Positions 8,768 through 29,543 of a stretch of 64,000 bases of DNA are shown piece after piece (the stretch's first letter is position 1; each line of letters opens with the position of its first letter). The stretch comes from a virus. The stretch lies in IMG/VR virus record IMGVR_UViG_3300028045_000007, positions 90,409 to 154,408 of that record; one strand, 5' to 3'. Made by a program: the position numbers and the translations under genes. The notes beneath the pieces were generated by a model, which worked only from the letters and a program-made list of their open reading frames with translations, had not been told where the DNA came from and did no database searches.

Positions 8768-9418
8768 ATGCTTGATCATGCAGAGACCATTTTGGATAAT
8801 TATGGTCCACTCATCAAGAAGATTGCTAGGTCGGCTTGCTTCTCGTCTGCTACTATTGACATATTGGATTTGATTCAGGTTGGCGAGATCGCCGCACTGA
8901 GGGCAGTTAAGAAATATGATCCCTCGGCTGGTGCCACGATACGTTCATATGTAGCACGCTTGGTACGTCAAGATATTTATCGTGAGGCTGCCAGATTCCT
9001 TGGTGTGTTTACCGTGGATCCTCGCGTGACTAGCCTTGCAGCAAAAGCTAATCGCATGTCTCTAGATGGACACAGTGATGAAAGTATCGCTACGGCTCTT
9101 GACGAGTCAAGTAGTTATGCACTGGACGCAGATCATGTACGAGATCTTCGGCTCGCGTACAGTCGTCGCCAGTACGTGGTTACCCAGGATGACGATGCAC
9201 TAGATGAGTCTGATGCAGATCAACACACCATTAAAGAACTACTAATAGAGATTGTACAGGATGAGCCGGATAAGATTATTCTAGACAATCGAATCCTTGG
9301 CACCTCTTCGGTACGTGACATTGCACGCCTACTCTCGGTGTCGCCGCGACGAGTTTATGAGTTGGAAAACGATCTCAAGGATCGTATCAAACATGCAATC
9401 AAAGGGATGACTGAATGA
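8768..9418 (+). CDS. Sigma-70 family RNA polymerase sigma factor
   Basis: Region 2 DLIQVGEIAALRAVKKYDP...IRSY; region 4 HTH SVRDIARLLSVSPRRVYELE. Confidence 0.85.
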   Translation: MLDHAETILDNYGPLIKKIARSACFSSATIDILDLIQVGEIAALRAVKKYDPSAGATIRSYVARLVRQDIYREAARFLGVFTVDPRVTSLAAKANRMSLDGHSDESIATALDESSSYALDADHVRDLRLAYSRRQYVVTQDDDALDESDADQHTIKELLIEIVQDEPDKIILDNRILGTSSVRDIARLLSVSPRRVYELENDLKDRIKHAIKGMTE

Positions 9419-11226
9419 AAAAACGTATTCTATTTGTGGGCGAAGCCAGTAATCTAAGCACTGGGTTTTCGACATATTATCGAGAATTGATACCTCGTCT
9501 AGTAGCCACGGGCAAATACGAGATTGCTGAGTTTGGGTGCTATGTGCGTCAGGACGACCCCGCAGTTCATAACTTTATCCAGGGCCGCTGGAAGTTTTAT
9601 GGCGTCATGCCAATGTCCGAAGAAGAGAATCAGGTCTTCAATCAGCCGAATCCACACCCTCGTACTCGTGGACAGAATACTAACCAGTTTGGCGAGTATA
9701 AGTTCAACAGTGTTGTTGCTGATTTCAAGCCCGATATTGTAATTGATATTCGAGATTGGTGGATGCTTGAATACCAGGAACGCAGTGTCTTTAGACCTTG
9801 GTACAAATGGATCGTGATGCCAACCGTGGACGCAGAGCCACAAGACGAGAGTTGGGTTCAAACTTACGAGAATGCCAATATGGTTTTGGCATATTCCGAC
9901 TACGGAGTACATACGCTACGTCGTCAAAGTCAACTCATGCCCAATGGTCGCCGCAAAATGAAGGTATTCCCTACGCCTATGCGGCCCGGCGTTGATCTTA
10001 CAGTTTTCAAACCTATAGATAAAGCCGATACTCGTGAGTATTGGAATATGTCTAAAACCAATCCTGTAATTGGTACAGTAATGCGTAATCAAAGTCGTAA
10101 ACTGTATCCAGACTTGATTGATGCTTTTTCACTCATGAAGAAGCGATACAAGGGTGTTGATGCTGTCGATAAGGCCGTACTCTTGATTCATTCGTCTTGG
10201 CCCGACAATCAGCATTCATTTGATTATCCACGTCATATGATGAGGCTTGAAACGTATGAATGGCTACCTCATTACAACAAGGGCATTCGTGGTAGTGTCT
10301 TGCAAACCATGCACTGTCACGCTTGTAAAGAACCATCTGTGACGTTTGCTATGAACCTTTATGGTAAACCCCTGCAAGATGGACGTATTAAGTTACCTTG
10401 TCCTCATTGTGGTGCGGTAGAAGCTTCGCCTCCGGGTACTGGCGGAGGATTTACTCGTGAACGACTAGCTAAACTATATAACCTCATGGATCTGTATGTA
10501 CAATGCTCTATTTGTGAGGGCGATGGCATGCCGATCCAAGAAGCGAAGGCGTGCGGTGTGCCAGCACTCATGACAGATTACACGGCCATGCGTGAGAAGG
10601 GGCGTTTTCCAGACTATCCTCACTTTGAGGAACTCAAGATAACCGAAGACACATACACCTGTCCGAAGGGTGGCATGGTTGTAGATGTTGAGCGGTACTA
10701 TTACGAGCCTGAAACTAGTTGTCGCCGAGCACATCCGTCAATCAGTGACCTAGCTGACAAGATGCATAAGGCTATCTCGGATGACGATCTTCTTGCCAAA
10801 ATGTCCACCGAGGCCAGAGAGTGTGCCGAAGAGAACTACGACTGGGAGGAATTGTGGCAGCAATGGGAATATGTGCTGGACAACGTTGTGCCAATGGATA
10901 GATCAGAGACCTGGGATAGTCCTATCGTAGAACACGATGAAGTCAAGCCCGTGCCCATTCCTGACAATTTGAGCGACGAACAGTACGTGGAATGGCTATA
11001 CATTAATGTTCTCAAGTATCCTGTCGTAGACCCGGAGGGTGCAAAGACATGGATTCAACACCTACAACTCGGTGTGCCGCGTGAAAGACTCATGGAGCAA
11101 TTCGTTGCTATCGGTAACCAACAATCAGATGGCAGTAAAGTGCGTGATCAGATCCGTAGTCAGATGCTTCCACAGGGACATAGCGTAACGCCCGTGGCCA
11201 ATAGACCAAAACAGGAGTTCATTTAA
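9415..11226 (+). CDS. GT-B (GT4-like) glycosyltransferase with Zn-ribbon insert and DUF4214-like tail
   Basis: KRILFVGE..STGF, MRNQSRK, EGDGMPIQEAKACG (EX7E), CHAC/CPHC. Confidence 0.85.
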   Translation: MKKRILFVGEASNLSTGFSTYYRELIPRLVATGKYEIAEFGCYVRQDDPAVHNFIQGRWKFYGVMPMSEEENQVFNQPNPHPRTRGQNTNQFGEYKFNSVVADFKPDIVIDIRDWWMLEYQERSVFRPWYKWIVMPTVDAEPQDESWVQTYENANMVLAYSDYGVHTLRRQSQLMPNGRRKMKVFPTPMRPGVDLTVFKPIDKADTREYWNMSKTNPVIGTVMRNQSRKLYPDLIDAFSLMKKRYKGVDAVDKAVLLIHSSWPDNQHSFDYPRHMMRLETYEWLPHYNKGIRGSVLQTMHCHACKEPSVTFAMNLYGKPLQDGRIKLPCPHCGAVEASPPGTGGGFTRERLAKLYNLMDLYVQCSICEGDGMPIQEAKACGVPALMTDYTAMREKGRFPDYPHFEELKITEDTYTCPKGGMVVDVERYYYEPETSCRRAHPSISDLADKMHKAISDDDLLAKMSTEARECAEENYDWEELWQQWEYVLDNVVPMDRSETWDSPIVEHDEVKPVPIPDNLSDEQYVEWLYINVLKYPVVDPEGAKTWIQHLQLGVPRERLMEQFVAIGNQQSDGSKVRDQIRSQMLPQGHSVTPVANRPKQEFI

Positions 11227-11227
11227 T

Positions 11228-12487
11228 ATGAAACTACTACTCACTGGACCGCTCCTAGACTTCAGCGGCTTTGCTCATGCGTCGCGTGACATCTTGCGTA
11301 TGCTGCTCGAAAGCGACGAACTCGATATCGTAATCCGTCCCCTGCGGTATGATCAGCTAGATCCGGGGCAGGAGTTTGAGGTTCCGGATTGGATGCAGCC
11401 GCTACTGGAAAAAGACCTCATGAATGTTGACATGGTATTGCAGATTACTACGTGCAACGTAGAGGCAGTACCGATCCCCGGCGTGGTCAATGGACTCTAT
11501 ACCTTTTTCGAGACCAATAGATTACAACCTAATTGGGCAGCTAAGGCTCAGGAATTTGACTTTCTAATTGTGCCGTCGCGATTCAACGCCGAGGCCCTTG
11601 GTTATTCTGGCGTGACCAAACCCGTCTTAGTTGCTGCTCCTCCGTGCGACGAGGACACGTACAAGCGTGAATATACTCCCTTTGAGATTGCAGACGTAGA
11701 GGGACGTACTGTATTCTATAATATCTGTCAGCTTAGTACTAAAAAAGGCATCGATGTTTTGCTGAGGGCATACTATGCGGCGTTTGCCGGTGCTCCGGAT
11801 GACGTTTTGCTTGTTCTTAAGACGTATGTCGATATGCAGAATCGTCAAAATGATTTTGATATTGTAAAAGGGTACATTGAGGGTATCAAGGCACGTTGTC
11901 GCATCCCGGTGGAGAAACTTCCCCCCGTATTACCTGTTGTGTATACCATGACAGATGATGAAATTCATGGCCTACACACTAGAGGCGACGCCTATGTTTG
12001 CTCCAGTCGTGCAGAGGGTTGGGGACTGCCTGTATTTGATGCAATGGCACATGGCAATACCGTAATTTCGCACGACAAGAGTGGTCTGGGAGATTTCGTG
12101 TCTCGTGAAAATTGCTTGCTTTATGGTGGCACACCCTCGTTCTTCTATGATATGCCACATCCGGACCCCTTGCTCTTTACAGGTATTGAGCAATGTCTTG
12201 AGCCCTCACCAGTTGAATTGGCTTTGACCATGCAGCAGTTTCACTTGCTTCGTAAGGGTAACGAGAGCGACGAGCTAGACGAAGCCCATCAAGAACAATG
12301 GAGTGCTGTATTGCAGCGACGCGAGAATGCTGCACAGGTTGGTCAACGCTTTGACTATCGCAACATTAGTGGCAAAGTTGTTACACAGCTTTTGGCGGCA
12401 CTTAAGTCTTGGAAAGAGACAGGTGTGGTCAGTTATGATGCAACCGCAGAAGGTACCGTAGTAGGTAGTCTAGAGGATCAACTATGA
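11228..12487 (+). CDS. GT-B (GT4-like) glycosyltransferase
   Basis: SGFAHASR, KKGIDVLLRAY, SRAEGWGLPVFDAMAHG. Confidence 0.88.
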   Translation: MKLLLTGPLLDFSGFAHASRDILRMLLESDELDIVIRPLRYDQLDPGQEFEVPDWMQPLLEKDLMNVDMVLQITTCNVEAVPIPGVVNGLYTFFETNRLQPNWAAKAQEFDFLIVPSRFNAEALGYSGVTKPVLVAAPPCDEDTYKREYTPFEIADVEGRTVFYNICQLSTKKGIDVLLRAYYAAFAGAPDDVLLVLKTYVDMQNRQNDFDIVKGYIEGIKARCRIPVEKLPPVLPVVYTMTDDEIHGLHTRGDAYVCSSRAEGWGLPVFDAMAHGNTVISHDKSGLGDFVSRENCLLYGGTPSFFYDMPHPDPLLFTGIEQCLEPSPVELALTMQQFHLLRKGNESDELDEAHQEQWSAVLQRRENAAQVGQRFDYRNISGKVVTQLLAALKSWKETGVVSYDATAEGTVVGSLEDQL

Positions 12488-13521
12488 ATAATCAACCCCT
12501 ATATGTTCCGCAGATGCAGTCTATTGCGGACTGTGTAAATAAGCCCGTGCGTATTGTGCAATGTATTCAAATGCACAACGAGGAGGAGTTCGCATCACTT
12601 GTGCTTGCCTCCCTCTATGACGAGGTAGACCGCATCCTCGTCATAGAAGGGGCAGTTGAAAATAGACCTAACTCCACAGAGGATGGACACTCTATTGATA
12701 GCACGAAAGAGATTTTGGCTGACTTTAAAGCCAATCATGACCCCGACAACAAAGTCGTAATCATCTCTATCAATAAACACTGGAAGAACCTAGAGGAGAT
12801 GAAGCAAGCATTCCTAGATATGTCATTTCCGGGCGACTGGATTCTTATCAATGACGCTGACGAGTTCTATCGCCCAGAAGATATTCGTCGCTTGCGGCGA
12901 GCGATCGATCTAAATCCTCACGCCTGTGAGTTTGTGCCTAACTTCCTACACTTCTATGGCGACATCTTCCACGTTGCTGTGCCCGGTCCCGAATGGCAAC
13001 CGCAGCACCAGAGGTTCTTCAAGTTTGTGCGTGGCATGAAATACAACTCTCACCCAGTTGTGACCGATCCCGCTGGCCACTGTACATATTTCTCTCTACA
13101 CTACCAACATCGTAGAGTGATGCTCAACGATTTCTGGATCTACCACTATGGTTATGCTCGCCGCAACATGAAAGCAATCATGACCGACAAGCAAGAGTAC
13201 TACAAAGGGGAACTCGCTAAGCATGACGGTGCAGACAAGAAGTTCGACCAGAAGGTACAGGATTGGATGGACGGGACCGAGCCGGTGCTGGAGTTTGACG
13301 GACAACATCCGGCCATTTTTGAAGCCAAACCGGGCGTGCCGTTGCCAAGCCTAATGGTGCCTATGGACCACGAGCTAAACGTGGTTGGTAGCTGGAAGGA
13401 CGATCCGTTTTACAGCAAAGTACTTGCTGGAGAAGAATACGGCAACATTTACCTATGTATGACGGGTAGGGCACAACCACACATAGAACACTACCACAAT
13501 GGTATGGAGATACAACAATGA
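12484..13521 (+). CDS. GT-A (GT2-like) glycosyltransferase
   Basis: HNEEEF, SIDST, DWILINDADE (DXD), HYGY. Confidence 0.82.
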   Translation: MNNQPLYVPQMQSIADCVNKPVRIVQCIQMHNEEEFASLVLASLYDEVDRILVIEGAVENRPNSTEDGHSIDSTKEILADFKANHDPDNKVVIISINKHWKNLEEMKQAFLDMSFPGDWILINDADEFYRPEDIRRLRRAIDLNPHACEFVPNFLHFYGDIFHVAVPGPEWQPQHQRFFKFVRGMKYNSHPVVTDPAGHCTYFSLHYQHRRVMLNDFWIYHYGYARRNMKAIMTDKQEYYKGELAKHDGADKKFDQKVQDWMDGTEPVLEFDGQHPAIFEAKPGVPLPSLMVPMDHELNVVGSWKDDPFYSKVLAGEEYGNIYLCMTGRAQPHIEHYHNGMEIQQ

Positions 13522-13850
13522 GACTACGTCATAAACTTGCGGCATTGCTCACTAGATGGGCACTCTGTCTTGATCCCACCAACGCTACTATACGTCGTGC
13601 GGCACTTGAAGCACTCGACGCTCGTAATCTCGCACAAGAGAAGGAATTTAGCGATGGCTTTTCTCAGATCGATTGGGTCAAGAGAGACATCGAGGGTGGC
13701 AGGGAGGATTGTGATCACATGAACGTTCTGTGTGAGGTTCACGACATAGAAGATCGCCCATATCGTGTGTGTAGCCGATGCAGGGCTCGTGTATATATTC
13801 CACGTGCAGAACACAAAAGAGGACTTATTCCGTTTGACGGCACAAAATGA
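13518..13850 (+). CDS. Hypothetical protein
   Basis: ATGA-coupled ORF with CxH...CxxC. Confidence 0.6.
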   Translation: MRLRHKLAALLTRWALCLDPTNATIRRAALEALDARNLAQEKEFSDGFSQIDWVKRDIEGGREDCDHMNVLCEVHDIEDRPYRVCSRCRARVYIPRAEHKRGLIPFDGTK

Positions 13851-14281
13851 ATTACACATACAAATACCCCCGCTACGACATCACGTGTGATATTGCGTGT
13901 GTCGTTTGGAACTTTTACTCCAAACAGGCAACAGAGCTTCTACTGATTAAGCGTGGAGTTGAGCCTGACAAGGGCAAATGGGCGTTGCCGGGAGGACACC
14001 TTGATCCTGATGAACTCTTGATCGAGTGTGCCGCACGCGAACTACAAGAAGAAACGGGGCTAGTTGCTGATCTGCAACCTGTTCGTAACTTTGACACTAT
14101 AGATAGGTCTCCAAACGACCGATGTATCTGTTGTCTTTTCATGGCAAAGTTTGACATCAGTAGACCAGAGGTGGTAGCGGGTGACGATGCCGTAGATTAC
14201 AAGTGGATCAAGGCGGGAGACCTAGACGATATTGACTTTGCATTCGACTGCAAGGAAATGGCTAAGACTATACTACTATGA
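13847..14281 (+). CDS. NUDIX hydrolase (ADP-ribose pyrophosphatase-like)
   Basis: WALPGGHLDPDE...AARELQEETG Nudix box; AGDDA, AFD. Confidence 0.92.
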   Translation: MNYTYKYPRYDITCDIACVVWNFYSKQATELLLIKRGVEPDKGKWALPGGHLDPDELLIECAARELQEETGLVADLQPVRNFDTIDRSPNDRCICCLFMAKFDISRPEVVAGDDAVDYKWIKAGDLDDIDFAFDCKEMAKTILL

Positions 14282-15216
14282 AGAAAGTACTGTACGTTGG
14301 CTTGAAATGGAATTACGGTAAGAAAGAGGAGGACACTTCCTTTGAATACCGTAACATTGAGGCGGGCATCAAGGAGTGTGCTGACGTTACCTGTTGGCAT
14401 CCGGACGAACCAAGCATGTCCGAAGATGAGTTGCTAGAATTAGTCCCTAAGTTTGATTGTATCTTCCATACGGCGTTTAACGAGACTCTTGACCTACCAG
14501 AGTCGGTAGCTCGCCTTGCCATGAGGATTGATATTCCTGTTGTGCAGTGGGACTGTGATGCGTCCTGGAGATTCCACAACTGGATCCTGCCGCATCGCAA
14601 GGATAGAGCGTCGCACTTTATTACTACTCACTCCTCTACGGTGGGGTGGTACGAGAAATGCGGTATGAACGTGATCAAGTCCCAGTGGGCGGGCTCTCCG
14701 ATGTATGTTGGCAAACCAGATACTCCCAAGCTATACGACGTTGGCTTTGCTGGGCAAAAGCACGGCATTAGAACTCAGTTGATAGAGGTTATGGCCAAGG
14801 CTGGCTTCGATGTCCATGTCTTTGGTCATTACTGGGAAGACTTTCCTAACTCTCATCCACATACACCGCAGCTTCAGCAGATGATTGATGTCTTGGACGC
14901 CTCCAAGATTTGTCTCAATCTGTCCAACCCGTGGCACGTTGGCACAATGCCTCAGATCAAGGGTAGACACTTTGAAATCCCCCAAGTTGGAGGCTTTCAA
15001 CTGACAACGACTGCTGACAACCTTGACGAATACTTTGTTCCCGACAAAGAAATCATCGTCGTTCATTCTGCACCAGACCTAATTGAGCGTTCGCTGTACT
15101 ATCTTGATCACGAAGATGAGCGGTTGGCTATCGCGAAGGCCGGTCAGGAAAGAGTGCTCCGTGATCATCAATGGAAACATAGGTTCGAGGATATCTTTAA
15201 TGAGATTGGAATCTGA
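14278..15216 (+). CDS. CgeB-like (Glyco_trans_1_2) glycosyltransferase
   Basis: YDVGFAG, SKICLN, KGRHFEIPQVGGFQLT, RLAIAKAGQERVLRDH. Confidence 0.85.
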   Translation: MKKVLYVGLKWNYGKKEEDTSFEYRNIEAGIKECADVTCWHPDEPSMSEDELLELVPKFDCIFHTAFNETLDLPESVARLAMRIDIPVVQWDCDASWRFHNWILPHRKDRASHFITTHSSTVGWYEKCGMNVIKSQWAGSPMYVGKPDTPKLYDVGFAGQKHGIRTQLIEVMAKAGFDVHVFGHYWEDFPNSHPHTPQLQQMIDVLDASKICLNLSNPWHVGTMPQIKGRHFEIPQVGGFQLTTTADNLDEYFVPDKEIIVVHSAPDLIERSLYYLDHEDERLAIAKAGQERVLRDHQWKHRFEDIFNEIGI

Positions 15217-15778
15217 CATCATTCGTGACATCGATGGCGTTTTATGCTATAACAATTTTGAGTTCTGTGATCCAGTGCCATTCTTGAATTCGTGCCCAGC
15301 TATTTTTCCTGGGTCGTTTAACCCCGTACACGATGCACATTTGGCTATTGGTACGGAATGCTTATTTGAGATCTGTGTAGACAATTTCTATAAGGGACTT
15401 GCCGATCCGGAAGATATCCTGCATCGCATTAAGATGTTGTCACTATGTGGCGTGCCCGTATTGCTCACCAAGGGTCGTAGTTATGTTGAAAAAGACAGGC
15501 TGTTGCGTAGTTGTCGCAATACACGCTACGTGTATCGTATTGGCAGTGATGCGTGGCACAGATGCATTCGATCTGAGGGTATGTTTGATGGCGTAGACGC
15601 TGCCTTTGAAGTGTACGCCTATCCTGGCGAGACCGTTGCGAGTGCAGACCTAGACTTTTGTGTTGTTCATCTACCAAGACCTCAGGTGCGTGCGTCTGAT
15701 ATCCGACTGGGTAAACCACACAATATCCCCGACGTTGTTAGGGAGTATATAGATCAAAACGGATTGTATCAAGTATGA
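15200..15778 (+). CDS. HxGH-superfamily nucleotidyltransferase (NadD/cytidylyltransferase-like)
   Basis: FPGSFNPVHDAH, IGSD, RASDIR...IPDVVREYIDQNGLY. Confidence 0.75.
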   Translation: MRLESDIIRDIDGVLCYNNFEFCDPVPFLNSCPAIFPGSFNPVHDAHLAIGTECLFEICVDNFYKGLADPEDILHRIKMLSLCGVPVLLTKGRSYVEKDRLLRSCRNTRYVYRIGSDAWHRCIRSEGMFDGVDAAFEVYAYPGETVASADLDFCVVHLPRPQVRASDIRLGKPHNIPDVVREYIDQNGLYQV

Positions 15779-16632
15779 AATTATCGTATATTGTAGCTAC
15801 ATACAACTGTCCCCACTGGCTGGATTTACATCTTGCCAATTTGATCGAAGGACAGACAGATCGTGATTTTGAAGTACTCGTTGTTCATCACGAATCACCC
15901 AATTATGATAGAGAAGTAGGAGAAAAATGGGCAGCGATTGATGATCGCGTACGTAACCTAGACGATAAGGACTATGGGTGCTACGCCCCCGCCTGGATTC
16001 ATGGCTGGAAACATGCAAAGGGTGATTTCGTTGTCAACAGTAACACGGACGACTTCCATCATCCGGACTTTACCAGCGAATTCCATAAACATATGACATT
16101 GGCGACCAAAGGGGTTCTATCTCCTTATCCTATAGCATTTGGCTATGCAGGCATGCAGGTTGTACGCGAAGACGGTAGAATGGTCGGTGCGGGACTAAAG
16201 CCAGCCTTCGATTTTGAGCTAATGACTCGTGAATGCTGGGGTGGACCCCAGGTATGCTGGCGTAACGATGACGACTTTCGTCAGACGGTTGACTGGGATC
16301 TGATGTTGGATCGAGCCAAGAGCTATCACTCCGCGTATGACTACTGGCTATGGCTTTACTTCTTAAGTTTGGGGTATCACGGCTACGTTATCCAGAAGAT
16401 ACTGACTATCTACACACAAAGAGATGGGTCCGTCGAGAATGCTAACAAGTGGCAAAATAATTGGGAAACATATGCGTCCATTAGTGAGTTTTTCGGACAT
16501 AATTTTGATGGACACTTGAAACACGCTCGGGAGTTTCGTGACTTCCATACATTGCCCCCCAAGGACAAGTGGGTAGAGACTATGCAAGCAGGAAAAAAAT
16601 GGAAAAGATCAAAGCGTGGTGGTACAAACTAG
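15775..16632 (+). CDS. GT-A (GT2) glycosyltransferase
   Basis: LSYIVATYN, QTDRDFEVLVV, AKGDFVVNSNTDD, YDYWLWL. Confidence 0.85.
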   Translation: MKLSYIVATYNCPHWLDLHLANLIEGQTDRDFEVLVVHHESPNYDREVGEKWAAIDDRVRNLDDKDYGCYAPAWIHGWKHAKGDFVVNSNTDDFHHPDFTSEFHKHMTLATKGVLSPYPIAFGYAGMQVVREDGRMVGAGLKPAFDFELMTRECWGGPQVCWRNDDDFRQTVDWDLMLDRAKSYHSAYDYWLWLYFLSLGYHGYVIQKILTIYTQRDGSVENANKWQNNWETYASISEFFGHNFDGHLKHAREFRDFHTLPPKDKWVETMQAGKKWKRSKRGGTN

Positions 16633-17009
16633 TCGCTAGCGACCTCGTTCTGAAGATTAAGCTCGTGGACGCTCGACTTGCTAGTGAAAAAATCATTAGT
16701 GATGCCCTCAGAAAAGAACTAAACTCGGTACGCAGGAGATACGCCGAGGTTACGGAAAAGCTCCACATGAAGCTTGCAAATGATGATTCCAGAGCGGCAG
16801 TTCAGATCCTTAGGGAGAGAATGGGCATGGATTCAACCCTTCCTGGCAAGCTTGATATCGTCAGACAACAACTTCGTCAGGAACTTGCCGTAGCCTGCTA
16901 TCACGACGAGTTACTTGAACATTACGCCAGCGATCAGTGCTCTTTCGACGACCTTCCTCTTGAGGAACGTAAGCGATACTTCAAGATGATCGACGACCAA
17001 ACCTCATGA
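16599..17009 (+). CDS. Hypothetical helical protein
   Basis: ORF filling the gap between GTs; ATGA coupling downstream. Confidence 0.55.
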   Translation: MEKIKAWWYKLVASDLVLKIKLVDARLASEKIISDALRKELNSVRRRYAEVTEKLHMKLANDDSRAAVQILRERMGMDSTLPGKLDIVRQQLRQELAVACYHDELLEHYASDQCSFDDLPLEERKRYFKMIDDQTS

Positions 17010-21587: not shown

Positions 21588-21769
21588 ACTACTTCTATGT
21601 CAGAAACACCAAGAACGCCGAGGTCATCAAGGGGTTTCACCGCGAAATGATGGTCTGGCAAAGCGAAGAAGAGGCTACGGCATTCATTGAACGTTTGCCT
21701 GTTGGCCAATCCTCGTGGGAGGTTGCCCGTTGTCCTATTGAAAATCGTCCAGAACAAGAAGACAAATGA
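21584..21769 (+). CDS. Hypothetical protein
   Basis: GGAGG RBS; ATGA coupling on both sides. Confidence 0.6.
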   Translation: MNYFYVRNTKNAEVIKGFHREMMVWQSEEEATAFIERLPVGQSSWEVARCPIENRPEQEDK

Positions 21770-22683
21770 AGATTCTAGTCTCATATCGTGGCATTCCGCA
21801 GTCACCAGGGTGGGCTGTCGGCGACATGGTTATTACGGCACTCCGTGACCTTGGTCACGAGGCCCACCCATACGCCAAGTACTATCAAAAGAACGATTGG
21901 GTCAAGACTCGTCCCATGCTGGACGATCATGACTGGGACCTGATTCTGTACGTCGAATGCAACGATGCAGATCAGCAGTATACGGAGCTAAGGATAACAC
22001 GTGCCCGTAAAACAGCTTGTTGGCTATTCGATACCAGCTATCACGAAGACCGTTACCAGTCTCTTGTGAACTACTTCGGCTTTGATCATCTTTTTCTAGC
22101 CAACCCACTCACTATCCAACAATACAAGGTATGGGGGTATAAGAATGTCCATTATCTACCTTATGCATCTGATAGCAAATTACACGTACGTTCGTTGGAA
22201 CATCCCAAAACTCATGACGTGGTGCTTGTTGGGTCTGTTAGAGACGATAGGCGTACTCTTATTGCTCAGCTCCGTGAGGGCGGCATAAACGCAGAGTTAA
22301 TTGGAGGCAAATTTCGCGAAGAGTACATTGATACCCTCGCAGCAGCGAGGGTAGTGGTCAATCAGAACCCCGAGATTGGTCGTGGCCTCCTAAACATGAG
22401 GTTTTTCGAGGCTCAATCTGCTGGTGCTATTCTATTGACAGAAGACAGTGATAGGCAACACAACCATTTAGTTTCCCTAGAAAAAGCTACCGAGGGCTCT
22501 ATTGGTTATGATTCCATGAATGATTTAATGTTCCTTGCTCGTGAAGCTTTGGAAGATAGTGAAGGACGGCAAAAACATTGTGAGTGGGCACAGACTAATA
22601 TACTCACTAACCACACCTATCATAATAGGTGTCAACAAATTTTAGAGACAGTGTTTTCAAATGAAAGAAACCGACAGTATTAG
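21766..22683 (+). CDS. CgeB-like glycosyltransferase
   Basis: YLPYA, DVVLVGS, LNMRFFEAQSAGAILLT, HTYHNR. Confidence 0.82.
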   Translation: MKILVSYRGIPQSPGWAVGDMVITALRDLGHEAHPYAKYYQKNDWVKTRPMLDDHDWDLILYVECNDADQQYTELRITRARKTACWLFDTSYHEDRYQSLVNYFGFDHLFLANPLTIQQYKVWGYKNVHYLPYASDSKLHVRSLEHPKTHDVVLVGSVRDDRRTLIAQLREGGINAELIGGKFREEYIDTLAAARVVVNQNPEIGRGLLNMRFFEAQSAGAILLTEDSDRQHNHLVSLEKATEGSIGYDSMNDLMFLAREALEDSEGRQKHCEWAQTNILTNHTYHNRCQQILETVFSNERNRQY

Positions 22684-23326
22684 TGTTTTACTCTGCGTAC
22701 ATAGCCAAGATCATGAACATGATATGCTTTTGCAGCGTGCCCTTGAGTCATTAGTGGCACAAACGTATACAGATTTCGAGACGGTCATCGTGATGGACGA
22801 GTGCTGGGACGGCACCCGCCACATCGTTGATAGCTATGGTGAGGTGTTAGACTTACGGGTCCATGAACGCCCCCGCAAGGAGGGCTTGGCAGCAGCTAAG
22901 AACTTTGGCCTTAACCATTGCGACCACGAATGGATTGCCTATCTAGACGCCGACGATCAGTGGCTTGATTGCAAGCTCGAAGTGCAGCGGAAGTGGCTAT
23001 TGGAGCGACCAGAGGTGGACTTTTGCGGGACAAACGCCTGGGACCTACTTGATGGTGCGATGGTACCCAATTGCTTTGAAGTCACGCAATACAGCACGCA
23101 TAACGATATTGTTGAGAGACTACCTTACGAGAATATCCTTTGTCATGGCAGCATGATGATTCGTCGTTCCGCTCTTCATGCTTTGGGTGGCTATAGTCGT
23201 GACAAAGTGTTGCTTGGTCGTGAAGATTGGAATCTATGGCAACGAGCCGTGGCTGCCGGATATAACTTCGGCAAAATCGCGGAGAGGCTTTACATTTACT
23301 CATTAGGAACTAGCGTACCCCGTTGA
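22661..23326 (+). CDS. GT-A (GT2) glycosyltransferase
   Basis: ALESLVAQTYTDFE, GLAAAKNFG, IAYLDADD, EDWNLW. Confidence 0.9.
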   Translation: MKETDSISVLLCVHSQDHEHDMLLQRALESLVAQTYTDFETVIVMDECWDGTRHIVDSYGEVLDLRVHERPRKEGLAAAKNFGLNHCDHEWIAYLDADDQWLDCKLEVQRKWLLERPEVDFCGTNAWDLLDGAMVPNCFEVTQYSTHNDIVERLPYENILCHGSMMIRRSALHALGGYSRDKVLLGREDWNLWQRAVAAGYNFGKIAERLYIYSLGTSVPR

Positions 23327-23328
23327 CA

Positions 23329-23982
23329 ATGAATACTAAAGGACATAATCCATTTAAAGATACGCCCGACAATCATGATTTCATGACCGAGGAGCACGTC
23401 TCTGTTTTTCTTCGGAACCACAAGACAGGAGTTGATAATCTGGGACGACACATGCTGGTAGACATAGTTGCACGGTATGATAATCCCAGGGTGTTGGACA
23501 TGGCATGTGGCACGTGTGTCAACTGGGATGTATTCAAACAACGCGGACTCAAGTGTCAATATGTTGGTTTAGATCGTACGACCAGTATGATTCTCGAAGC
23601 AGATAAACGCTATGGCACTGAGATCACCCTTCATGAAGGATATGTACAGCGTACAGGGCTACCTGATGACTTCGCCGACATAGCTATTATGCGACACATA
23701 CTTGAGCATTTACAGGAGGGGTATGAGGATGCGATTAGAGAGGGGTTGCGTGTTGCCTCCAAGGAACTCGTTGTTGTTTTCTTCTTGACTCCTTCAAATA
23801 AGGATGAGGATGAAGTTAGTGAGTCCGAGCCAGATGAGAATGGCTGCACTTACTTCTGGAATACGTATAGTTGGTCCAAGTTTGCCGAGTTCGTTGCCAC
23901 TTTGGGCGTACAGATGAAAGTTGGGCACGTTGTAACCCCTGGTGCCGCTCATGCTGACACGATTGTTCGACTAATCAAATGA
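23329..23982 (+). CDS. Class I SAM-dependent methyltransferase
   Basis: VLDMACGT, YVGLD, RHILEH. Confidence 0.85.
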   Translation: MNTKGHNPFKDTPDNHDFMTEEHVSVFLRNHKTGVDNLGRHMLVDIVARYDNPRVLDMACGTCVNWDVFKQRGLKCQYVGLDRTTSMILEADKRYGTEITLHEGYVQRTGLPDDFADIAIMRHILEHLQEGYEDAIREGLRVASKELVVVFFLTPSNKDEDEVSESEPDENGCTYFWNTYSWSKFAEFVATLGVQMKVGHVVTPGAAHADTIVRLIK

Positions 23983-24821
23983 TCCCCGACGTTACGTACT
24001 TCATTCTCGACTACAATCCACGCTGTCAAGATCAGGCGAGTGGATATCTTGATGCGTGTATTCGTTCGCTGTATGCCAACCGCAACAGCAGCATCACGAG
24101 CGAAGTGTACGTGATTGATCAAGGTAATGGTTTTACCGACTACAAGAATGCACTAGCCAACAAGTGTGCTGGCTATGGCTTTCACTTCGTTGGCCTGGAC
24201 CACAACAAGGGCATTTCCGGCGGCATCAATCTGGCGGCTCGCCTAAGTCGCAGTCCGCACCTATGTCTAGTGACCTCAGATACGACATTCACGCCCGAGC
24301 TTGATACAGTGCTTTTGGGAGAGCTAGAAGCACACGATGACATCTATCAAATAACGCCTTCTGTAGATAAAGGAGACATTCCGTATCAGGTGCAAGGATT
24401 CACAGATAGCAAGGATCCTATCCGTTGTGCTGTTCAAGAGCTTACTATTCAGTGCTGGAAAAGAGAAGTGTTTGACGTTATTGGCTACTGGGATGAGCGA
24501 TGGCTTGCTTGTTACGAGTCGGCAGACTATCCCCTGCGGTTATTTCTGACGGGGCGTTGCTCTGCGGCTATCACGCACAAGATTTCCTGCCATCACGAGC
24601 ACAATACTACCTATCACAATGGTTCCCTGGCGGACGCCTACGGTGGGCAGTTTGATCATGGGCCTCTACGTCATATGTGGGACGAGAAGTGGCCCGGCCT
24701 AGACTGGGACATGCTGTACGATCTGACTCAGTACAACGAAACCACGAGAGCCCGTCTTGCCGCCCAGTACTACCAAAACATCGCATTATCATGGAACGCT
24801 CAGCAATCATCAGGCACCTGA
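23979..24821 (+). CDS. GT-A (GT2) glycosyltransferase
   Basis: VYVIDQG, NKGISGGIN, IGYWDE...YESADY. Confidence 0.8.
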   Translation: MIPDVTYFILDYNPRCQDQASGYLDACIRSLYANRNSSITSEVYVIDQGNGFTDYKNALANKCAGYGFHFVGLDHNKGISGGINLAARLSRSPHLCLVTSDTTFTPELDTVLLGELEAHDDIYQITPSVDKGDIPYQVQGFTDSKDPIRCAVQELTIQCWKREVFDVIGYWDERWLACYESADYPLRLFLTGRCSAAITHKISCHHEHNTTYHNGSLADAYGGQFDHGPLRHMWDEKWPGLDWDMLYDLTQYNETTRARLAAQYYQNIALSWNAQQSSGT

Positions 24822-25369
24822 TCCGTGCATACGGCTTTCAGTCCTATCTCGAAATTGGCGTACGTGGTCGCGAGACCCTGAGTCAGATTGATCTGTCCGT
24901 TGTGGACGGTGTCGATCCGAACGGCCAGGGCAACTATACCATGACCTCCGACGAGTTTTTCGAGTCCCATTGCAAGCGTAGTTATGATATAATCTTTGTC
25001 GATGGACTACATTTGCATGAGCAGGCCAAAAAAGACATAGAAAATGCCCTGACGCATTTGAGCGACAACGGTATAATTGTAGTACATGACTGTCTTCCGG
25101 AAGAGGAGTGGCATCAGCTACGGGAAGGCATATCTGGGCGTCCCTGGAACGGAGACGTTTGGAAGGCTTTCGCGGATCTGCGATCCGAGAGGGCCGATCT
25201 TAGTATGTATGTTGTGGACACCGATTGGGGTTGCGGCATCATTAGACGTGGTTCTCAGTACCTCTACCCTCGTCCTGATGAGTGGACTTGGGGGTATTTC
25301 AAGCAGCATAGAGACAATATCATGAACGTAGTAACAGTAGAGGAGTTCCTTGGATATTCACAACCGTAA
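24791..25369 (+). CDS. SAM-dependent methyltransferase (Methyltransf_24-like)
   Basis: SYLEIGV, TSDEFF, DIIFVDGLH, GIIVVHD, WNGDVWK. Confidence 0.85.
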   Translation: MERSAIIRHLIRAYGFQSYLEIGVRGRETLSQIDLSVVDGVDPNGQGNYTMTSDEFFESHCKRSYDIIFVDGLHLHEQAKKDIENALTHLSDNGIIVVHDCLPEEEWHQLREGISGRPWNGDVWKAFADLRSERADLSMYVVDTDWGCGIIRRGSQYLYPRPDEWTWGYFKQHRDNIMNVVTVEEFLGYSQP

Positions 25370-25865
25370 ATGGATCGAGGCGGTAGCCCCGCAGTACTCG
25401 CCTTTCAATCCCGATCAGAAGGTGCTGGAAATTGGCAGTTGGATTGCCCCAGGACAGGAAGAGATCGTGTGTCGCAAGACTATTGCTCCGCTCGTTGGAG
25501 AATACGTCGGATTGGACATGCAGGACGGCAATGGCGTTGATGTTGTATCGGACGCCAAGCTCATGCCGTTCTCTGATGAGCACTTTCATGTAATCATCAG
25601 TACCGATTGCTACGAACATGTAGATTGGCCTCGTGAAGTGACGCACGAGGCTTATCGTGTTTTGAAGCAAGGTGGCGTGTTCTACCTGACGACCGTGTTT
25701 GACTTTGAGATTCATGGTTATCCGGATGACTTCTGGAGGTTCACGCCACACTGCATTAGGCTTCTTCTTGAGGACGCTGGATTTGAAGCGGTAGAGGTGA
25801 CGGGGTGCGGCGGACCACATGCAAAGCGTCCGTGTATCGTCAGAGGAATAGGTATCAAGCGATGA
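25350..25865 (+). CDS. Class I SAM-dependent methyltransferase
   Basis: VLEIGS, YVGLD, EHV, RVLKQGG, HGYPDDFWRFT; TTG start after AGGAG. Confidence 0.85.
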   Translation: MDIHNRKWIEAVAPQYSPFNPDQKVLEIGSWIAPGQEEIVCRKTIAPLVGEYVGLDMQDGNGVDVVSDAKLMPFSDEHFHVIISTDCYEHVDWPREVTHEAYRVLKQGGVFYLTTVFDFEIHGYPDDFWRFTPHCIRLLLEDAGFEAVEVTGCGGPHAKRPCIVRGIGIKR

Positions 25866-26395
25866 AGCTGAATCTGGCCAGCCACGGAGACAATCGCGAG
25901 GGGTATGTGAACGTTGACTTCGATCACCCCGCCGCCGACCTGAAGGCAGACGTTACCGATTTGTTTACGATAGAAGATGAGTCAGTCGATGAGATCCTTG
26001 CCTTTCACATCCTAGAGCACTTCCGTGCTGGACATTACGAGCCGCACCTGTCCAATCCCCTCAATCCGAGAACAGTGATAGAGGCCCTGGCCGAGTGGAA
26101 GCGTGTCCTCAAGCCGGGCGGCAGACTGGAGATCAAGGTGCCTGACTTTGAGAAGGTCATTTGGCTTTTCCAGAACTTTCCCACGTGGTCTAGGAAGCCA
26201 GGTGGTAACGATCCATTCCCCGCATACTCTGACTGGCTTGTGTCCAATGGACAGCATCAGTGTATTTTCGACAGGCCAACCATGCTAAGCGTGCTACGGG
26301 CGGTCGGCTTTCGAGACATCAACTTTGTTGACTCGTCGCCCGAGGCAGTTGTCAATCGTGAAAACATAGAAATGTATGTAGTGTGTAGTAGATGA
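25862..26395 (+). CDS. SAM-dependent methyltransferase (Methyltransf_11-like)
   Basis: KLNL, GYVNVD, HILEHF, EWKRVLKPGG..IKVPD. Confidence 0.83.
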   Translation: MKLNLASHGDNREGYVNVDFDHPAADLKADVTDLFTIEDESVDEILAFHILEHFRAGHYEPHLSNPLNPRTVIEALAEWKRVLKPGGRLEIKVPDFEKVIWLFQNFPTWSRKPGGNDPFPAYSDWLVSNGQHQCIFDRPTMLSVLRAVGFRDINFVDSSPEAVVNRENIEMYVVCSR

Positions 26396-26444
26396 TCTTG
26401 AAATTGATCATATCGATCCCATGATAAAGGAAAACAATAGCGTA

Positions 26445-27416
26445 ATGAAAGTACTAATCACAGGAGCCCACGGCTTCGTAGGACATCACGTCGTCCGGGA
26501 GCTTGAAAAAGAGCATGAGCTTTTGACGCCTTCGCGTCGAGAGTTGAATTTACTGTACACGACAGATCCATGCGGAGATCCACTAAGGGAAACTGAAGAG
26601 TACTTGAGGCGTAAGTCTGTAGATGCCATTGTGCATCTTGCGGCAACCTGCGGCGGCATTGGTATCAACAAAGACAACCCCGGCAAGTTCATGTATGACA
26701 ACCTACAGATGGGGATCAACGTGCTGGAGGCAGCACGCCTCGCGAACGTCTCAAAGGTTGTGGTACTCGGAACTGTTTGTGCCTATCCTAAGTTTACACC
26801 TATTCCTTTTCGAGAAAAAGACATTTGGAATGGCTATCCAGAAGAGACAAATGCCCCCTATGGCATAGCAAAGAAGACAGTCATGGAGATGGGTATTGCG
26901 TATTCGCGTCAGTATGGCATGAACATCACCAACCTCGTTCCTGTGAATATGGCGGGCGAGTGGGACAACTTTGACGAGTACAGCAGTCACGTGATCCCAG
27001 CACTGATCAAGAAGTTTGAGAACCCACACGGTACGGCCATACCCACCGTAGAACATGGTTACTACTGTGATCCCACGGTGGTGTTGTGGGGTACTGGTTC
27101 TGCTTCACGCGAATTCCTATATGCTGGTGATTGTGCAAGAGCTATCGCGGTAGCTCTCGTGAAAAACACTGGTCCAGAACCAATCAACCTTGGTACCGGC
27201 AACGAAGTTACTATCAAGGATCTTGCGGAATTGGTAAAGCGGGTTGGTAAGTATGACGCCAATATCGTATGGGATCCTACGAAGCCAGATGGGCAGCCCA
27301 GACGTAGCCTAGACATTACAAGGGCACAGAATGTACTGAGGTGGAACGCTACCACTTCACTCTTTGAAACGGTACGTAGAACAATTGAGTGGTATAGAAC
27401 AAATGGATCAGTATAG
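26445..27416 (+). CDS. fcl: GDP-L-fucose synthase
   Basis: TGAHGFVG, HLAATCGGI, CAYPK, YGIAK, SHVIPALI, WGTGSASREF, KPDGQPRR; alternative start 26421. Confidence 0.93.
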   Translation: MKVLITGAHGFVGHHVVRELEKEHELLTPSRRELNLLYTTDPCGDPLRETEEYLRRKSVDAIVHLAATCGGIGINKDNPGKFMYDNLQMGINVLEAARLANVSKVVVLGTVCAYPKFTPIPFREKDIWNGYPEETNAPYGIAKKTVMEMGIAYSRQYGMNITNLVPVNMAGEWDNFDEYSSHVIPALIKKFENPHGTAIPTVEHGYYCDPTVVLWGTGSASREFLYAGDCARAIAVALVKNTGPEPINLGTGNEVTIKDLAELVKRVGKYDANIVWDPTKPDGQPRRSLDITRAQNVLRWNATTSLFETVRRTIEWYRTNGSV

Positions 27417-27888
27417 TACACATACAGAGCTTCTAAAGTTTTTGATGGACAACCTTGCCATCGAAACAGTTTTGGAGTTAGGCATGGGACACTTCAGCAC
27501 CCCGTTGTTTCGGAGCTATCCAGGCGTTAGTTTAGTTAGCCTGGACTCTGACATCAATTGGGTCAATCAATTCAGTCCCGGTCCTAATCACACCGTTGGT
27601 GCCTACCCACTACTGGGGTTTGCTCGCAACGTGACTTGGTTTGATTTAGCTTTTGTTGATGGTAATCCAGCCAGCGAACGTGCCGCCTGTGTACAAGAGC
27701 TTTTGCTCAAAACTAGACTGGTTGTAGCACATGACACGGGTCCAGAAGACAATTGGAATTATCACTATGACGAGATCGTATTACCAGAAGGCTTTGTGCG
27801 TTTAGACTATACGAAAAAGTCACCGTGGACATCTGTTTTCACTGCTGACGCAGAAGTTATTGCTAAGGTACAAGAGTTCAATGGGTAG
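27403..27888 (+). CDS. Putative SAM-dependent methyltransferase
   Basis: VLELGMGHFST, FDLAFVDG, VVAHDT. Confidence 0.72.
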   Translation: MDQYSTHTELLKFLMDNLAIETVLELGMGHFSTPLFRSYPGVSLVSLDSDINWVNQFSPGPNHTVGAYPLLGFARNVTWFDLAFVDGNPASERAACVQELLLKTRLVVAHDTGPEDNWNYHYDEIVLPEGFVRLDYTKKSPWTSVFTADAEVIAKVQEFNG

Positions 27889-28519
27889 AAAAATCTTCCT
27901 AGATGTCGGGTGTAATACTGGTCAGTCTCTTGAGGCTGCACTAGACCATGACTTTGATGTCGTCTATTGTTTTGAGCCGGTGATGGAGTATTGTCAGTCG
28001 TTACAGTCTGGCGTCTTGTCTTCTGATGTCGGTTCTGGCATTGCAGAAAGACCTTACGACCAAACCAGGGTGGTCATTTGTCCCTTTGGACTTTGGGTCA
28101 ATACCGAGCGTATTTCTGTACATAGTCCTCACACAATGGCAGCGTCAGTGTTTGACGACCACCAGGACAGCGAGGGCGGCACCACAGAGTGTCAGTTTGT
28201 CAAGGCTTCCGAGTGGTTACGACATCACATCACCGACGACGATTTTGTTGTCATGAAAATGAATTGTGAGGGTAGCGAGTGTACCATTCTGGACCATCTA
28301 ATGGACAGTGATACTATACACTTGATCGATCACATTATGGTTGATTTTGATGCAATGAAGATTCCGTCCCAACGCCATAGACCGCAGCGTACTATTTGGA
28401 ACCTGAACAATCATGGTGTTGATTACGTGTTCGCCGAGGACGTTATGTGCGGGGCTACCCACCACGATCGTATTTGCTATTGGCTAAAAGAAAAGGTTGA
28501 GGAGATCAATGAACGATAA
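27881..28519 (+). CDS. FkbM-family methyltransferase
   Basis: FLDVGCNTG, YCFEP, MKMNCEGSE. Confidence 0.82.
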   Translation: MGRKIFLDVGCNTGQSLEAALDHDFDVVYCFEPVMEYCQSLQSGVLSSDVGSGIAERPYDQTRVVICPFGLWVNTERISVHSPHTMAASVFDDHQDSEGGTTECQFVKASEWLRHHITDDDFVVMKMNCEGSECTILDHLMDSDTIHLIDHIMVDFDAMKIPSQRHRPQRTIWNLNNHGVDYVFAEDVMCGATHHDRICYWLKEKVEEINER

Positions 28520-29543
28520 AACAGCAATTGTTACTGGTATTACAGGACAGGACGGATTCTATCTCGCCCACTATCTACTCTCGTTGGGCTATCGTGTCAT
28601 TGGCGTAGTGCGTCGTACGTCCATGCCCACAGACTGTCGTTTACGTACGTTGCGTGGCAGCCCCAATCTACATCTGGTACAGGGAGACGTTACTGACATT
28701 TCCAGTTTACAAAAGGCCGTGCGTGACTTTGCTCCCGATGAGTTCTATCACCTAGGGGCACAGAGTCACGTGGCTATGTCTTGGGAGTATCCCTTGGCCA
28801 CCGCAGACATCACGGGTATTGGCGTACTCAACTGTCTAGAGGCTATTCATACAGAGAAGCCAGACTGTAGATTCTATTTTGCTGGCAGCAGCGAGCAATT
28901 CGGCAATTCGATCGGTAAGCCTATCGAGGGAGAGATTCAGAACTACCTCAATGAAGATTCGCCGATGCATCCCGAGTCTCCTTACGCCGTGAGTAAGGTT
29001 TTCGGATACAATATGACTAGAGTTTATCGTAGGTCGTTCGACATGTTCGCGTCCTGCGGTATTCTGTTTAACCATGAGTCACCGGTTCGAGGTGAAGAAT
29101 TTGTGACTCGCAAAATTACGAGCCAACTGGCTCGTGTGAAGTGGGGATTACAAGAGTACGTTGAGCTTGGCAATATGGACGCCTGCCGTGACTGGGGATT
29201 CGCTGGAGACTATGTGCGTGGTATGCACGCCATACTACAGCACGATGAACCAGATGACTTCGTTCTAGCGACTGGCGAAACCAATTCCGTCAAGACGTTT
29301 TTCCAGAGATGCTGCCAGTGGTTTGATTTAGATCCGGATGAGGTCTATAAGGTCAATCCAAAGTTCATGCGTCCCAAGGACATCAACGTACTATTGGGCG
29401 ATAGCTTGAAAGCACGCAGCACGTTGGGTTGGGAGCCCACTTGTGCGTTCGATCAACTAGTAGACAAGATGTGTCAGTACGACTATCATCTACAGTCGCC
29501 AGATCCAGCTTATACCCGTCAAGCAGACGAGTTTCTATTTTAG
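28509..29543 (+). CDS. gmd: GDP-mannose 4,6-dehydratase
   Basis: TGITGQDG, AQSHV, SPYAVSK, GILFNHESP, FVTRKIT, RDWG. Confidence 0.96.
   Translation: MNDKTAIVTGITGQDGFYLAHYLLSLGYRVIGVVRRTSMPTDCRLRTLRGSPNLHLVQGDVTDISSLQKAVRDFAPDEFYHLGAQSHVAMSWEYPLATADITGIGVLNCLEAIHTEKPDCRFYFAGSSEQFGNSIGKPIEGEIQNYLNEDSPMHPESPYAVSKVFGYNMTRVYRRSFDMFASCGILFNHESPVRGEEFVTRKITSQLARVKWGLQEYVELGNMDACRDWGFAGDYVRGMHAILQHDEPDDFVLATGETNSVKTFFQRCCQWFDLDPDEVYKVNPKFMRPKDINVLLGDSLKARSTLGWEPTCAFDQLVDKMCQYDYHLQSPDPAYTRQADEFLF

Follow-up and report, generated by a model that had tools for sequence, protein, structure and literature searches.

A glycosyltransferase- and methyltransferase-rich gene block with a GDP-L-fucose pathway in an uncultured tailed phage: a candidate system for virion protein glycosylation

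Chloroviruses (PBCV-1) and giant viruses carry their own Gmd and GMER, build glycans in the cytoplasm with soluble glycosyltransferases (GTs), methylate the sugars and combine a conserved core glycan with strain-specific decoration. In phages, virion glycosylation has, to our knowledge, been demonstrated only for a handful of mycobacteriophages, which employ two to four GTs, and we know of no explanation, in some 20 years, for the 'LPS (lipopolysaccharide) gene' blocks of marine cyanophages. Here we describe a block of GT and methyltransferase genes, including Gmd and a GDP-L-fucose synthase (Fcl), in the IMG/VR record IMGVR_UViG_3300028045_000007. The block spans positions 9415-29543 of the window, that is, of the stretch of 64,000 nucleotides (positions 90,409 to 154,408 of the record) which forms the final 64 kb of one 154,408-bp contig of 99% completeness (CheckV). 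We propose, with moderate confidence, that this block serves the cytoplasmic glycosylation of the phage's own virion proteins, chiefly those of the tail, tail tip and fibre, without a lipid carrier.

Comparable Gmd/Fcl/FkbM/multi-GT blocks are found in the cultured, T4-like cyanophages S-SRM01 (MW015081), S-SCSM1, S-SCSM2R and P-SSM2, and the designation 'undescribed system' given to the locus in the initial annotation is therefore too strong (PMC9602691; PMC12801897). The cyanophage blocks share with the present one the setting in a lytic aquatic phage, the adjacency of the Gmd and GDP-fucose synthase genes, and a single co-oriented block that also includes an FkbM methyltransferase and numerous soluble GTs, of GT2 and other types. 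S-SCSM2R is reported to carry 13 GTs (PMC12801897) and S-SCSM1 13 such genes (PMC9602691). In S-SRM01, the block combines Gmd and Fcl with FkbM, three fucosyltransferases and several GTs; it also encodes a homologue (36% identity) of one of the GTs described below, that of GT-A fold. More generally, Gmd is encoded in 233 GenBank phage records. The present phage nevertheless belongs to a different lineage, with a Gmd only ~45% identical to that of the cyanophages; it lacks their GT11 and NodZ fucosyltransferases and NDP-sugar synthase, encodes more methyltransferases and possesses a 603-aa GT with four cysteines and a DUF4214 domain, for which tblastn recovered no homologue in 50,697 GenBank phage records.

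Candidate acceptor proteins and protein-directed enzymes

Virion proteins are the best-supported target because of three features, namely, a recurrent motif on tail proteins, a second GT/GT/FkbM module on the terminase side, and fusions of homologues of the GT-A-fold enzyme to TPR and GT41 domains. The motif, [APV]-S-G-[VIL], occurs 37 times in the proteins encoded at 49-90 kb of the genome, where 2.6 occurrences are expected (14x), compared to 10 observed versus 7.2 expected in all other proteins. The 502-aa protein whose gene follows that of the tape measure has eight Ser-Gly-hydrophobic serines, which are 98% conserved among 13 homologues (53-69% identity), as opposed to 50% conservation of the remaining serines. 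The motif is also abundant far from the main structural block: the proteins encoded at 38925-39608, 42901-43686 and 43691-45163 of the window contain five to six Ser-Gly-hydrophobic motifs each (0.3-0.7 expected) and may be further virion or fibre proteins; the first and third of these have no Pfam match. The terminase-side module (Table 1), which adjoins the packaging and head genes, appears to be a stable feature of the lineage: in all 10 relatives examined, its CgeB-like gene precedes TerL by 2-3 kb.

The GT-A-fold enzyme belongs to a family without a Pfam model. Alignment of its homologues moved the start codon to 19795, yielding a protein of 246 aa with an invariant R-D-C-D-S-R-L motif. 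A search of PDB sequences with the profile of this family gave nothing useful; the AlphaFold2 model (pLDDT 93.5) adopts a GT-A fold and is matched by Foldseek to Skp1 galactosyltransferase, glycogenin and the PBCV-1 capsid glycosyltransferase A64R. There are 52 homologues in cellular genomes or metagenome-assembled genomes (MAGs), 18 of which have N-terminal extensions, and among the eight fusions scanned, five carry TPR repeats and a sixth has TPR repeats together with GT41, the remaining two having a GT2 and a CgeB-like domain, respectively (examples in Table 1). Protein-directed GTs recognize their substrates through add-on modules such as TPR, and the TPR-plus-GT layout is that of FlmG (PMC7591256). 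On these grounds, the 246-aa protein is a candidate protein-directed GT. A specific link between the bacterial TPR-GT-A homologues and flagellin was considered and dropped, given that there is no steady adjacency to flagellin glycosylation islands.

The proposed pathway would start from host GDP-mannose, which the phage Gmd and Fcl would convert to GDP-L-fucose. The assignment of the pair in the initial annotation is well founded: Gmd is unambiguous, and the Fcl-like protein aligns end to end with the Escherichia coli GDP-fucose synthetase 1bws, retaining the catalytic Cys, the His of the epimerase and the Tyr/Lys pair, with Ser replaced by Thr. GDP-L-fucose is thus the expected product. No NTP_transferase (ManC-type nucleotidyltransferase) is encoded in the genome, so that the host must supply GDP-mannose, and other donors would probably be host UDP- and GDP-sugars. 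The 11 soluble GTs of the block, along with the terminase-side trio, could then add sugars stepwise onto serines of newly made structural proteins, the conserved [APV]-S-G-[VIL] motifs being the likely sites, whereas five class I S-adenosylmethionine (SAM) methyltransferases would O-methylate some of the sugars. Judging from the gene content, the glycan would be methylated and fucose-containing. Finally, a hypervariable island between the conserved core of the block and the Fcl/Gmd genes may alter the decoration from phage to phage. Diversifying selection on an exposed glycan would be expected to produce such variability, and the TylF-type sugar O-methyltransferase in the island of a relative speaks for the same proposal. 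In its most specific form, which we put forward tentatively and regard as somewhat less probable than virion glycosylation as such, the system would be sequon-directed and carrier-free, with ~12 soluble GTs building a methylated, fucose-containing glycan of ~10 sugars on the [APV]-S-G-[VIL] serines of tail-tip and fibre proteins and the island creating 'serotypes'. If true, this would be by far the largest phage protein glycosylation system known, with a defined acceptor motif.

Several observations weigh against virion proteins as the target. The predicted structures of the 246-aa and 603-aa GTs match generic GT-A and GT-B folds, and the block is set among replication and nucleotide genes rather than late genes. 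Pfam searches of the block proteins (E 0.01) recovered no dedicated fucosyltransferase family (GT10, GT11, NodZ, POFUT). The Ser-Gly-hydrophobic motif could be structural or serve another modification, and the protein with a weak major-head-protein match shows no enrichment of it. Furthermore, every relative that encodes the 502-aa tail protein also has the block, and all matches to this protein are at least 53% identical and come from the same lineage. Last, for the comparable cyanophage blocks, the authors infer modification of the host cell wall (PMC9602691, PMC12801897).

Export functions, lysogeny and alternative targets

Modification of the host surface is the most serious alternative, albeit one that we consider doubtful. 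Under this scenario, the glycan of the host surface would be remodelled in the course of lytic infection by phage GTs which, at the inner face of the membrane, act on host lipid-linked intermediates (O-antigen, capsule, exopolysaccharide or S-layer glycan), with the host flippase or ABC exporter completing the process; the phage might benefit, for example, from a block to superinfection or from altered grazing or aggregation. Apart from the published interpretation of the cyanophage blocks, the gene content fits this scenario: loci for O-antigen and colanic acid are typically built from GT2, GT4, Gmd and Fcl genes, GDP-mannose has to come from the host, and the hypervariable island is reminiscent of the variable middle part of O-antigen loci. 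The membrane steps, however, are missing. In a Kyte-Doolittle scan of all 219 open reading frames (ORFs; threshold 1.6, lenient setting 1.2), no protein of the 99%-complete genome shows two or more separated transmembrane-like segments at 1.6 or above. None of the block proteins reaches 1.6 or comes near it even at the lenient setting, and none of the 14 GTs of the genome has a transmembrane-like segment. At 1.2, only five proteins show three or more peaks, namely, three giant tail proteins and two small ones of 161 and 211 aa. With no multi-pass membrane protein in the genome, there is no Wzx, Wzy, WecA/WbaP, ABC permease or oligosaccharyltransferase; flippase and polymerase genes are likewise lacking from the whole genome, outside the block included. 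The absence of an exporter and an initiating transferase, initially noted for the block, thus extends genome-wide, and the lack of obvious transmembrane segments noted along with it is confirmed for the block proteins. Considering that GTs of this kind usually have no transmembrane segments, the missing export genes are compatible with the use of host machinery. Nevertheless, the host-surface scenario has to do without a phage-encoded initiating transferase, flippase, polymerase or any multi-pass membrane protein, and a glycan made by ~11 GTs on a foreign lipid carrier would be costly within a single lytic cycle. Integrase and resolvase domains (PF00589, PF00239) are absent from the genome, with positive controls, which makes lysogenic seroconversion unlikely and leaves no lysogen to gain from an altered surface. 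Besides, the Ser-Gly-hydrophobic motif of the tail proteins and the terminase-side GT module would be left unexplained.

Yet another scenario, which we regard as improbable, is that the block makes a soluble or intracellular product, either a polymethylated polysaccharide comparable to the methylglucose and methylmannose polysaccharides found in the mycobacterial cytoplasm, or glycosylated host proteins or small molecules involved in the takeover of the host. In its favour, the enzymes are soluble throughout and the GTs come with many methyltransferases; the TPR-fused cellular homologues of the GT-A enzyme may target non-virion proteins; and Foldseek places the methylmannose polysaccharide mannosyltransferase 7qsg among the neighbours of the 603-aa GT. 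This structural match, however, is one among hundreds of generic GT4 matches. No phage is known to make such a product, which also would account neither for the tail motif nor for the terminase-side module.

The initial annotation named virion proteins, or alternatively DNA, as the target; the first of these is the one that we favour, as argued above, whereas the second appears very unlikely. Glycosylation of bases would protect the phage DNA against restriction, as in the T-even, RB69 and MT/TET-pathway phages. Phage GTs classically are DNA-modifying enzymes and poly-glycosylated bases exist (PMC13326640; bioRxiv 10.1101/2023.12.21.572611); moreover, the block lies between replication and nucleotide-metabolism genes and a lone GT2 is encoded among recombination genes. 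All known routes to DNA glycosylation, however, need a hydroxyl-bearing base, made either by a ThyA homologue or by a C5-methylase in combination with a TET-like dioxygenase (PMC13326640; bioRxiv 10.1101/2023.12.21.572611). The genome contains neither a ThyA homologue (PF00303) nor a C5-methylase (PF00145), with positive controls for both, and no match to Tet/JBP (PF12851), the latter being a weaker negative given that the control found PF12851 nowhere. Thus, no source of the hydroxyl-bearing base is apparent, and the phage encodes ThyX, which makes ordinary thymidylate. Furthermore, 11-14 GTs and five methyltransferases are far above the requirements of any known DNA glycan.

Genome setting, gene content and conservation of the block

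The contig encodes a terminase, a portal and a tape measure, and accordingly represents a large tailed phage; the length of the tape-measure protein suggests that the tail is long. The terminase is ~27% identical at best to that of any phage in GenBank, and a near-identity search of the same 50,697 records gave no DNA match to the block. This lineage is one without a cultured member. The block is flanked by genes for Pol III alpha and a sigma factor upstream, and for helix-turn-helix proteins, a dUTPase-like protein, ribonucleotide reductase and ThyX downstream, in agreement with the position between replication and nucleotide genes originally assigned to it. Within the downstream cluster, a DAO-family FAD oxidoreductase (32692-33924) is encoded between the dUTPase/dCTP-deaminase-like gene and that of ribonucleotide reductase, an unusual member for a phage nucleotide-metabolism cluster. 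A chimeric contig was ruled out: the GC content is even over the whole window (0.46-0.53) and the block is syntenic in complete relatives. The synteny in related phage contigs, three of which have terminal repeats, shows that the block is phage rather than host DNA. A scan of the block for promoters and terminators yielded counts not above those in shuffled sequence.

Gene families were assigned using Pfam, NCBIfam, alignment and structure prediction (Table 1). The 11 GTs of the block comprise four GT4-like, four GT2, two CgeB-like (PF13524) and one GT-A-fold protein outside Pfam. This is the composition proposed from the initial reading, now supported by Pfam for ten of the GTs and by AlphaFold2, alignment and Foldseek for the eleventh, which had been listed as putative. 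Similarly, the Gmd/Fcl pair is present and intact, and the genes are co-oriented and mostly overlap, as described; two apparent gaps are occupied by small ORFs, so that there is no true intergenic gap at 18057-18655. By contrast, only five of the six claimed SAM methyltransferases, including FkbM, could be upheld. A 174-aa ORF between Fcl and the FkbM gene has no family match; a 50%-identical homologue of this ORF is located between Fcl and Gmd in the relative G013. PDB sequence searches with two of the methyltransferases and with the ORF that follows Gmd were uninformative. The initial annotation overlooked the genes for the Nudix, NMNAT-like and IMPDH/GMPR-family proteins and the gap-filling ORFs, as well as three further GTs and one FkbM methyltransferase encoded elsewhere. 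Whole-genome family searches bring the totals to 14 GTs and six methyltransferases. One of the GTs outside the block, the lone GT2, has as neighbours an SbcC-like AAA ATPase (51907-53145) and an RNase T-like exonuclease (54381-54980). For the GT4 at the centre of the block, the likely start codon, judging from relatives that align from residue 7-8, is ATG 18650 rather than GTG 18627.

The first GT of the block, the 603-aa protein, contains a four-Cys segment (C301, C304, C329, C332) and a C-terminal helical DUF4214 domain. The four cysteines are invariant in an alignment of 14 sequences, and the CxxC ... CxxC arrangement (residues 301-332), within the C-terminal Rossmann domain, looks like a zinc ribbon. 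The AlphaFold2 model (pLDDT 78) is matched by Foldseek to GT4 enzymes, the best match being the chlorovirus NY-2A GT 3oy2 (target-normalised TM score 0.77).

Three of the genes within the block do not belong to the glycan pathway. The Nudix hydrolase best matches the Nudix (ADP-ribose pyrophosphatase) half of NadM and, together with the NMNAT-like ORF, looks like a split NadM-type NAD-salvage pair, which may counter an NAD-depleting defence. Its identification as a GDP-mannose mannosyl hydrolase was rejected on account of the NadM-half match, the NMNAT-like neighbour and its absence from relatives. The Nudix gene, the NMNAT-like ORF and a 110-aa ORF are all absent at that place in relatives, in which the homologue of the accompanying CgeB-like GT (14278-15216) is found farther downstream, between the homologues of the genes at 22661 and 23323. 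Thus, the Nudix/NMNAT-like pair is inserted into the GT block along with a translocated CgeB-like GT. The third gene encodes an IMPDH/GMPR-family protein (NCBIfam matches split between IMPDH and GMPR; best PDB match 3r2g, 314 bits), for which a role in the supply or recycling of guanine nucleotides for GDP-sugars is plausible.

Conservation in related large phages, suggested as a check on the initial reading, is extensive. Using the central GT4 as a query, we identified 25 IMG/VR contigs of up to 183 kb (51-76% identity), and synteny of the block extends to at least 26 related contigs, these 25 and one contig from a MAG. The latter, NZ_JAILWB010000012.1 (157,945 bp), is part of a RefSeq Hydrogenophaga MAG and has the same gene order, with amino acid identities of 54-87% over the GT block; it provides a weak lead to a Hydrogenophaga host or is a mis-binned phage. 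The conserved core consists of the sigma factor, the GTs of 9415-23326, the IMPDH-like gene and the first methyltransferase, and in all 16 relatives tested, the block ends with a Gmd/Fcl-type pair. The length of the block ranges from ~19 to 27 kb across relatives. Between core and Fcl lies the hypervariable island, which in this phage carries one GT2 and three methyltransferases, compared to ~10 unrelated genes at the same position in the relatives G009 and G013, among them genes for nucleotidyltransferases, a PRK-type kinase, a class II aldolase, a HAD phosphatase, the TylF-type sugar O-methyltransferase and Methyltransf_24 proteins. This layout points to a conserved core glycan with lineage-specific decoration.

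Table 1. Features of the glycosylation gene block and of related loci. Positions refer to the window unless preceded by 'genome' or a locus name.
Feature	Position	Strand	Evidence and remarks
Sigma-70-family factor	8768..9418	+	PF04542 E 6.7e-10; overlaps first GT; conserved left border; 23/25 related loci
GT4-like GT-B, 603 aa, core gene	9415..11226	+	Pfam; 57-78% identity in 25/25 relatives
GT4-like, core gene	11228..12487	+	PF00534 34 bits, PF13692 29 bits; 25/25 relatives
GT2, core gene	12484..13521	+	PF00535 25.3 bits; 25/25 relatives, 53-76% identity
Segment peculiar to this phage at this place	13518..15778	+	110-aa ORF without known function, Nudix, CgeB-like GT, NMNAT-like ORF
Nudix hydrolase	13847-14281	+	PF00293 66 bits
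CgeB-like GT	14278-15216	+	PF13524 103 bits
NMNAT-like ORF	15083-15778	+	Weak match to NMN adenylyltransferases
GT2, core gene	15775..16632	+	PF00535 45.7 bits; 24/25 relatives
146-aa ORF, function unassigned	16569..17009	+	No Pfam match; homologues in few relatives only
GT4-like, core gene	17006..18076	+	PF13692 38.5 bits; 25/25 relatives
Two small ORFs: 126 aa; Cys-rich 72 aa (18437-18655)	18057..18655	+	No Pfam match
GT4, core gene	18650..19814	+	PF13692 48.6 bits, PF00534 44.4 bits; 51-76% identity, 25 contigs
GT-A-fold GT, 246 aa, core gene	19795..20535	+	Alignment, AlphaFold2, Foldseek, ESM Atlas
IMPDH/GMP-reductase-family protein, no CBS domain	20532..21587	+	PF00478 314 bits; 24/25 relatives
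CgeB-like GT-B, core gene	21766..22683	+	PF13524 51.6 bits; 24/25 relatives
GT2, core gene	22661..23326	+	PF00535 77.7 bits; 22/25 relatives
Class I SAM methyltransferase, final core gene	23323..23982	+	PF08241 42 bits; 17/25 relatives, partly lowered by truncated loci
Variable island of this phage	23979..26395	+	Pfam; patchy in relatives
Island GT2	23979-24821	+	Pfam
Island Methyltransf_24	24677-25369	+	Pfam
Island Methyltransf_11, two genes	25350-25865, 25805-26395	+	Pfam
GDP-L-fucose synthase (GMER/Fcl)	26421..27416	+	NF047922 E 5e-76, under NCBI strict cut-off; 1bws alignment
174-aa ORF between Fcl and FkbM gene	27364..27888	+	No Pfam/NCBIfam match
FkbM-family SAM methyltransferase	27860..28519	+	TIGR01444 38.2 bits (cut-off 37.7); PF25276 33 bits
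Gmd, right border of block	28497..29543	+	PF16363 348 bits; TIGR01472 327 bits; 57-75% identity in relatives
Lone GT2	53142..53741	-	PF00535 47 bits
Second glyco-module: CgeB-like GT, GT2, FkbM methyltransferase	genome 45850-48268		Immediately upstream of terminase
Large terminase, portal, weak major-head-protein match, 1727-aa tape-measure protein	genome 49-88 kb
Islands of related phages	L046:5499-12729, L047:6823-13471		Whole alternative sugar-activation routes, including a double nucleotidyltransferase
Cronbergia GT-A homologue, 1739 aa	L059:6923-12142		TPR repeats and GT41 domain
Azospirillum GT-A homologue, 1005 aa	L085:5357-8374		TPR repeats
Deltaproteobacterial GT-A homologue	L053:6998-8530		Fused to CgeB-like domain

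Comparison with known glycosylation systems

Phage GTs glycosylate virions in the mycobacteriophages Che8, Corndog and Myrna (Freeman et al. 2023, as cited in PMC12363180 and PMC12619734). As far as these citing papers describe that system, the one proposed here would share with it soluble, phage-encoded GTs that modify capsid or tail proteins of the phage itself in the cytoplasm and need neither a lipid carrier nor an export step. Going by the same accounts, the mycobacteriophages rely on few GTs, compared to 14 GTs, six methyltransferases and a dedicated GDP-fucose pathway in this phage, and their acceptors are C-terminal regions of capsid and tail-tube subunits, as opposed to the candidate internal Ser-Gly-hydrophobic motifs of tail-tip and fibre proteins. 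The 603-aa GT and the 246-aa GT-A protein, the two GTs searched in this way, have no mycobacteriophage homologue at E 1e-5 (tblastn, GenBank phage records).

The likeness to chloroviruses concerns the Gmd and GMER enzymes, the several soluble GTs and the methyltransferases, along with the structural neighbours A64R (2p72) and the NY-2A GT 3oy2; past these shared folds, there is no sequence-level homology. Furthermore, chloroviruses infect eukaryotes and attach N-linked glycans to Asn of the major capsid protein at atypical sites, in contrast to the bacterial host and candidate tail serines of this phage. In bacteria, cytoplasmic O-glycosylation, such as that of flagellin by FlmG and Maf, by GT41 enzymes of the OGT/SPINDLY type, or by autotransporter heptosyltransferases, similarly involves soluble GTs that modify Ser/Thr of structural proteins before assembly or export. 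However, the phage GT-A protein lacks a TPR module, and both the sugars and the number of GTs differ.

With O-antigen and capsule loci and seroconverting temperate phages, the block has in common Gmd/Fcl, GT2 and GT4 enzymes, methyltransferases and a variable central region. Unlike Wzx/Wzy or ABC loci, the phage encodes no initiating phosphoglycosyl transferase, flippase, polymerase, chain-length regulator or ABC transporter, and unlike seroconverting phages, it has no integrase and no GtrA/GtrB-type membrane proteins.

Overall, the type of gene block is not new. What distinguishes this one is the uncultured lineage, the set of 14 GTs and six methyltransferases, the Cys4/DUF4214 GT, the core-plus-island layout, the terminase-side module and the candidate sequon. 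Compared with the cyanophage blocks, it presents a cleaner case: the pathway is complete, soluble and free of a membrane step, the phage has neither lysogeny nor a route to DNA glycosylation, and there are a terminase-side module and a candidate acceptor motif on tail proteins. If virion proteins indeed are the target, environmental phages would spend ~15% of a 154-kb genome on a glycan coat, and the sequon would be testable, with soluble GTs and sugar methyltransferases that could be useful in glyco-engineering. This also would suggest that the cyanophage blocks are to be reread as modifiers of the virion rather than of the host.

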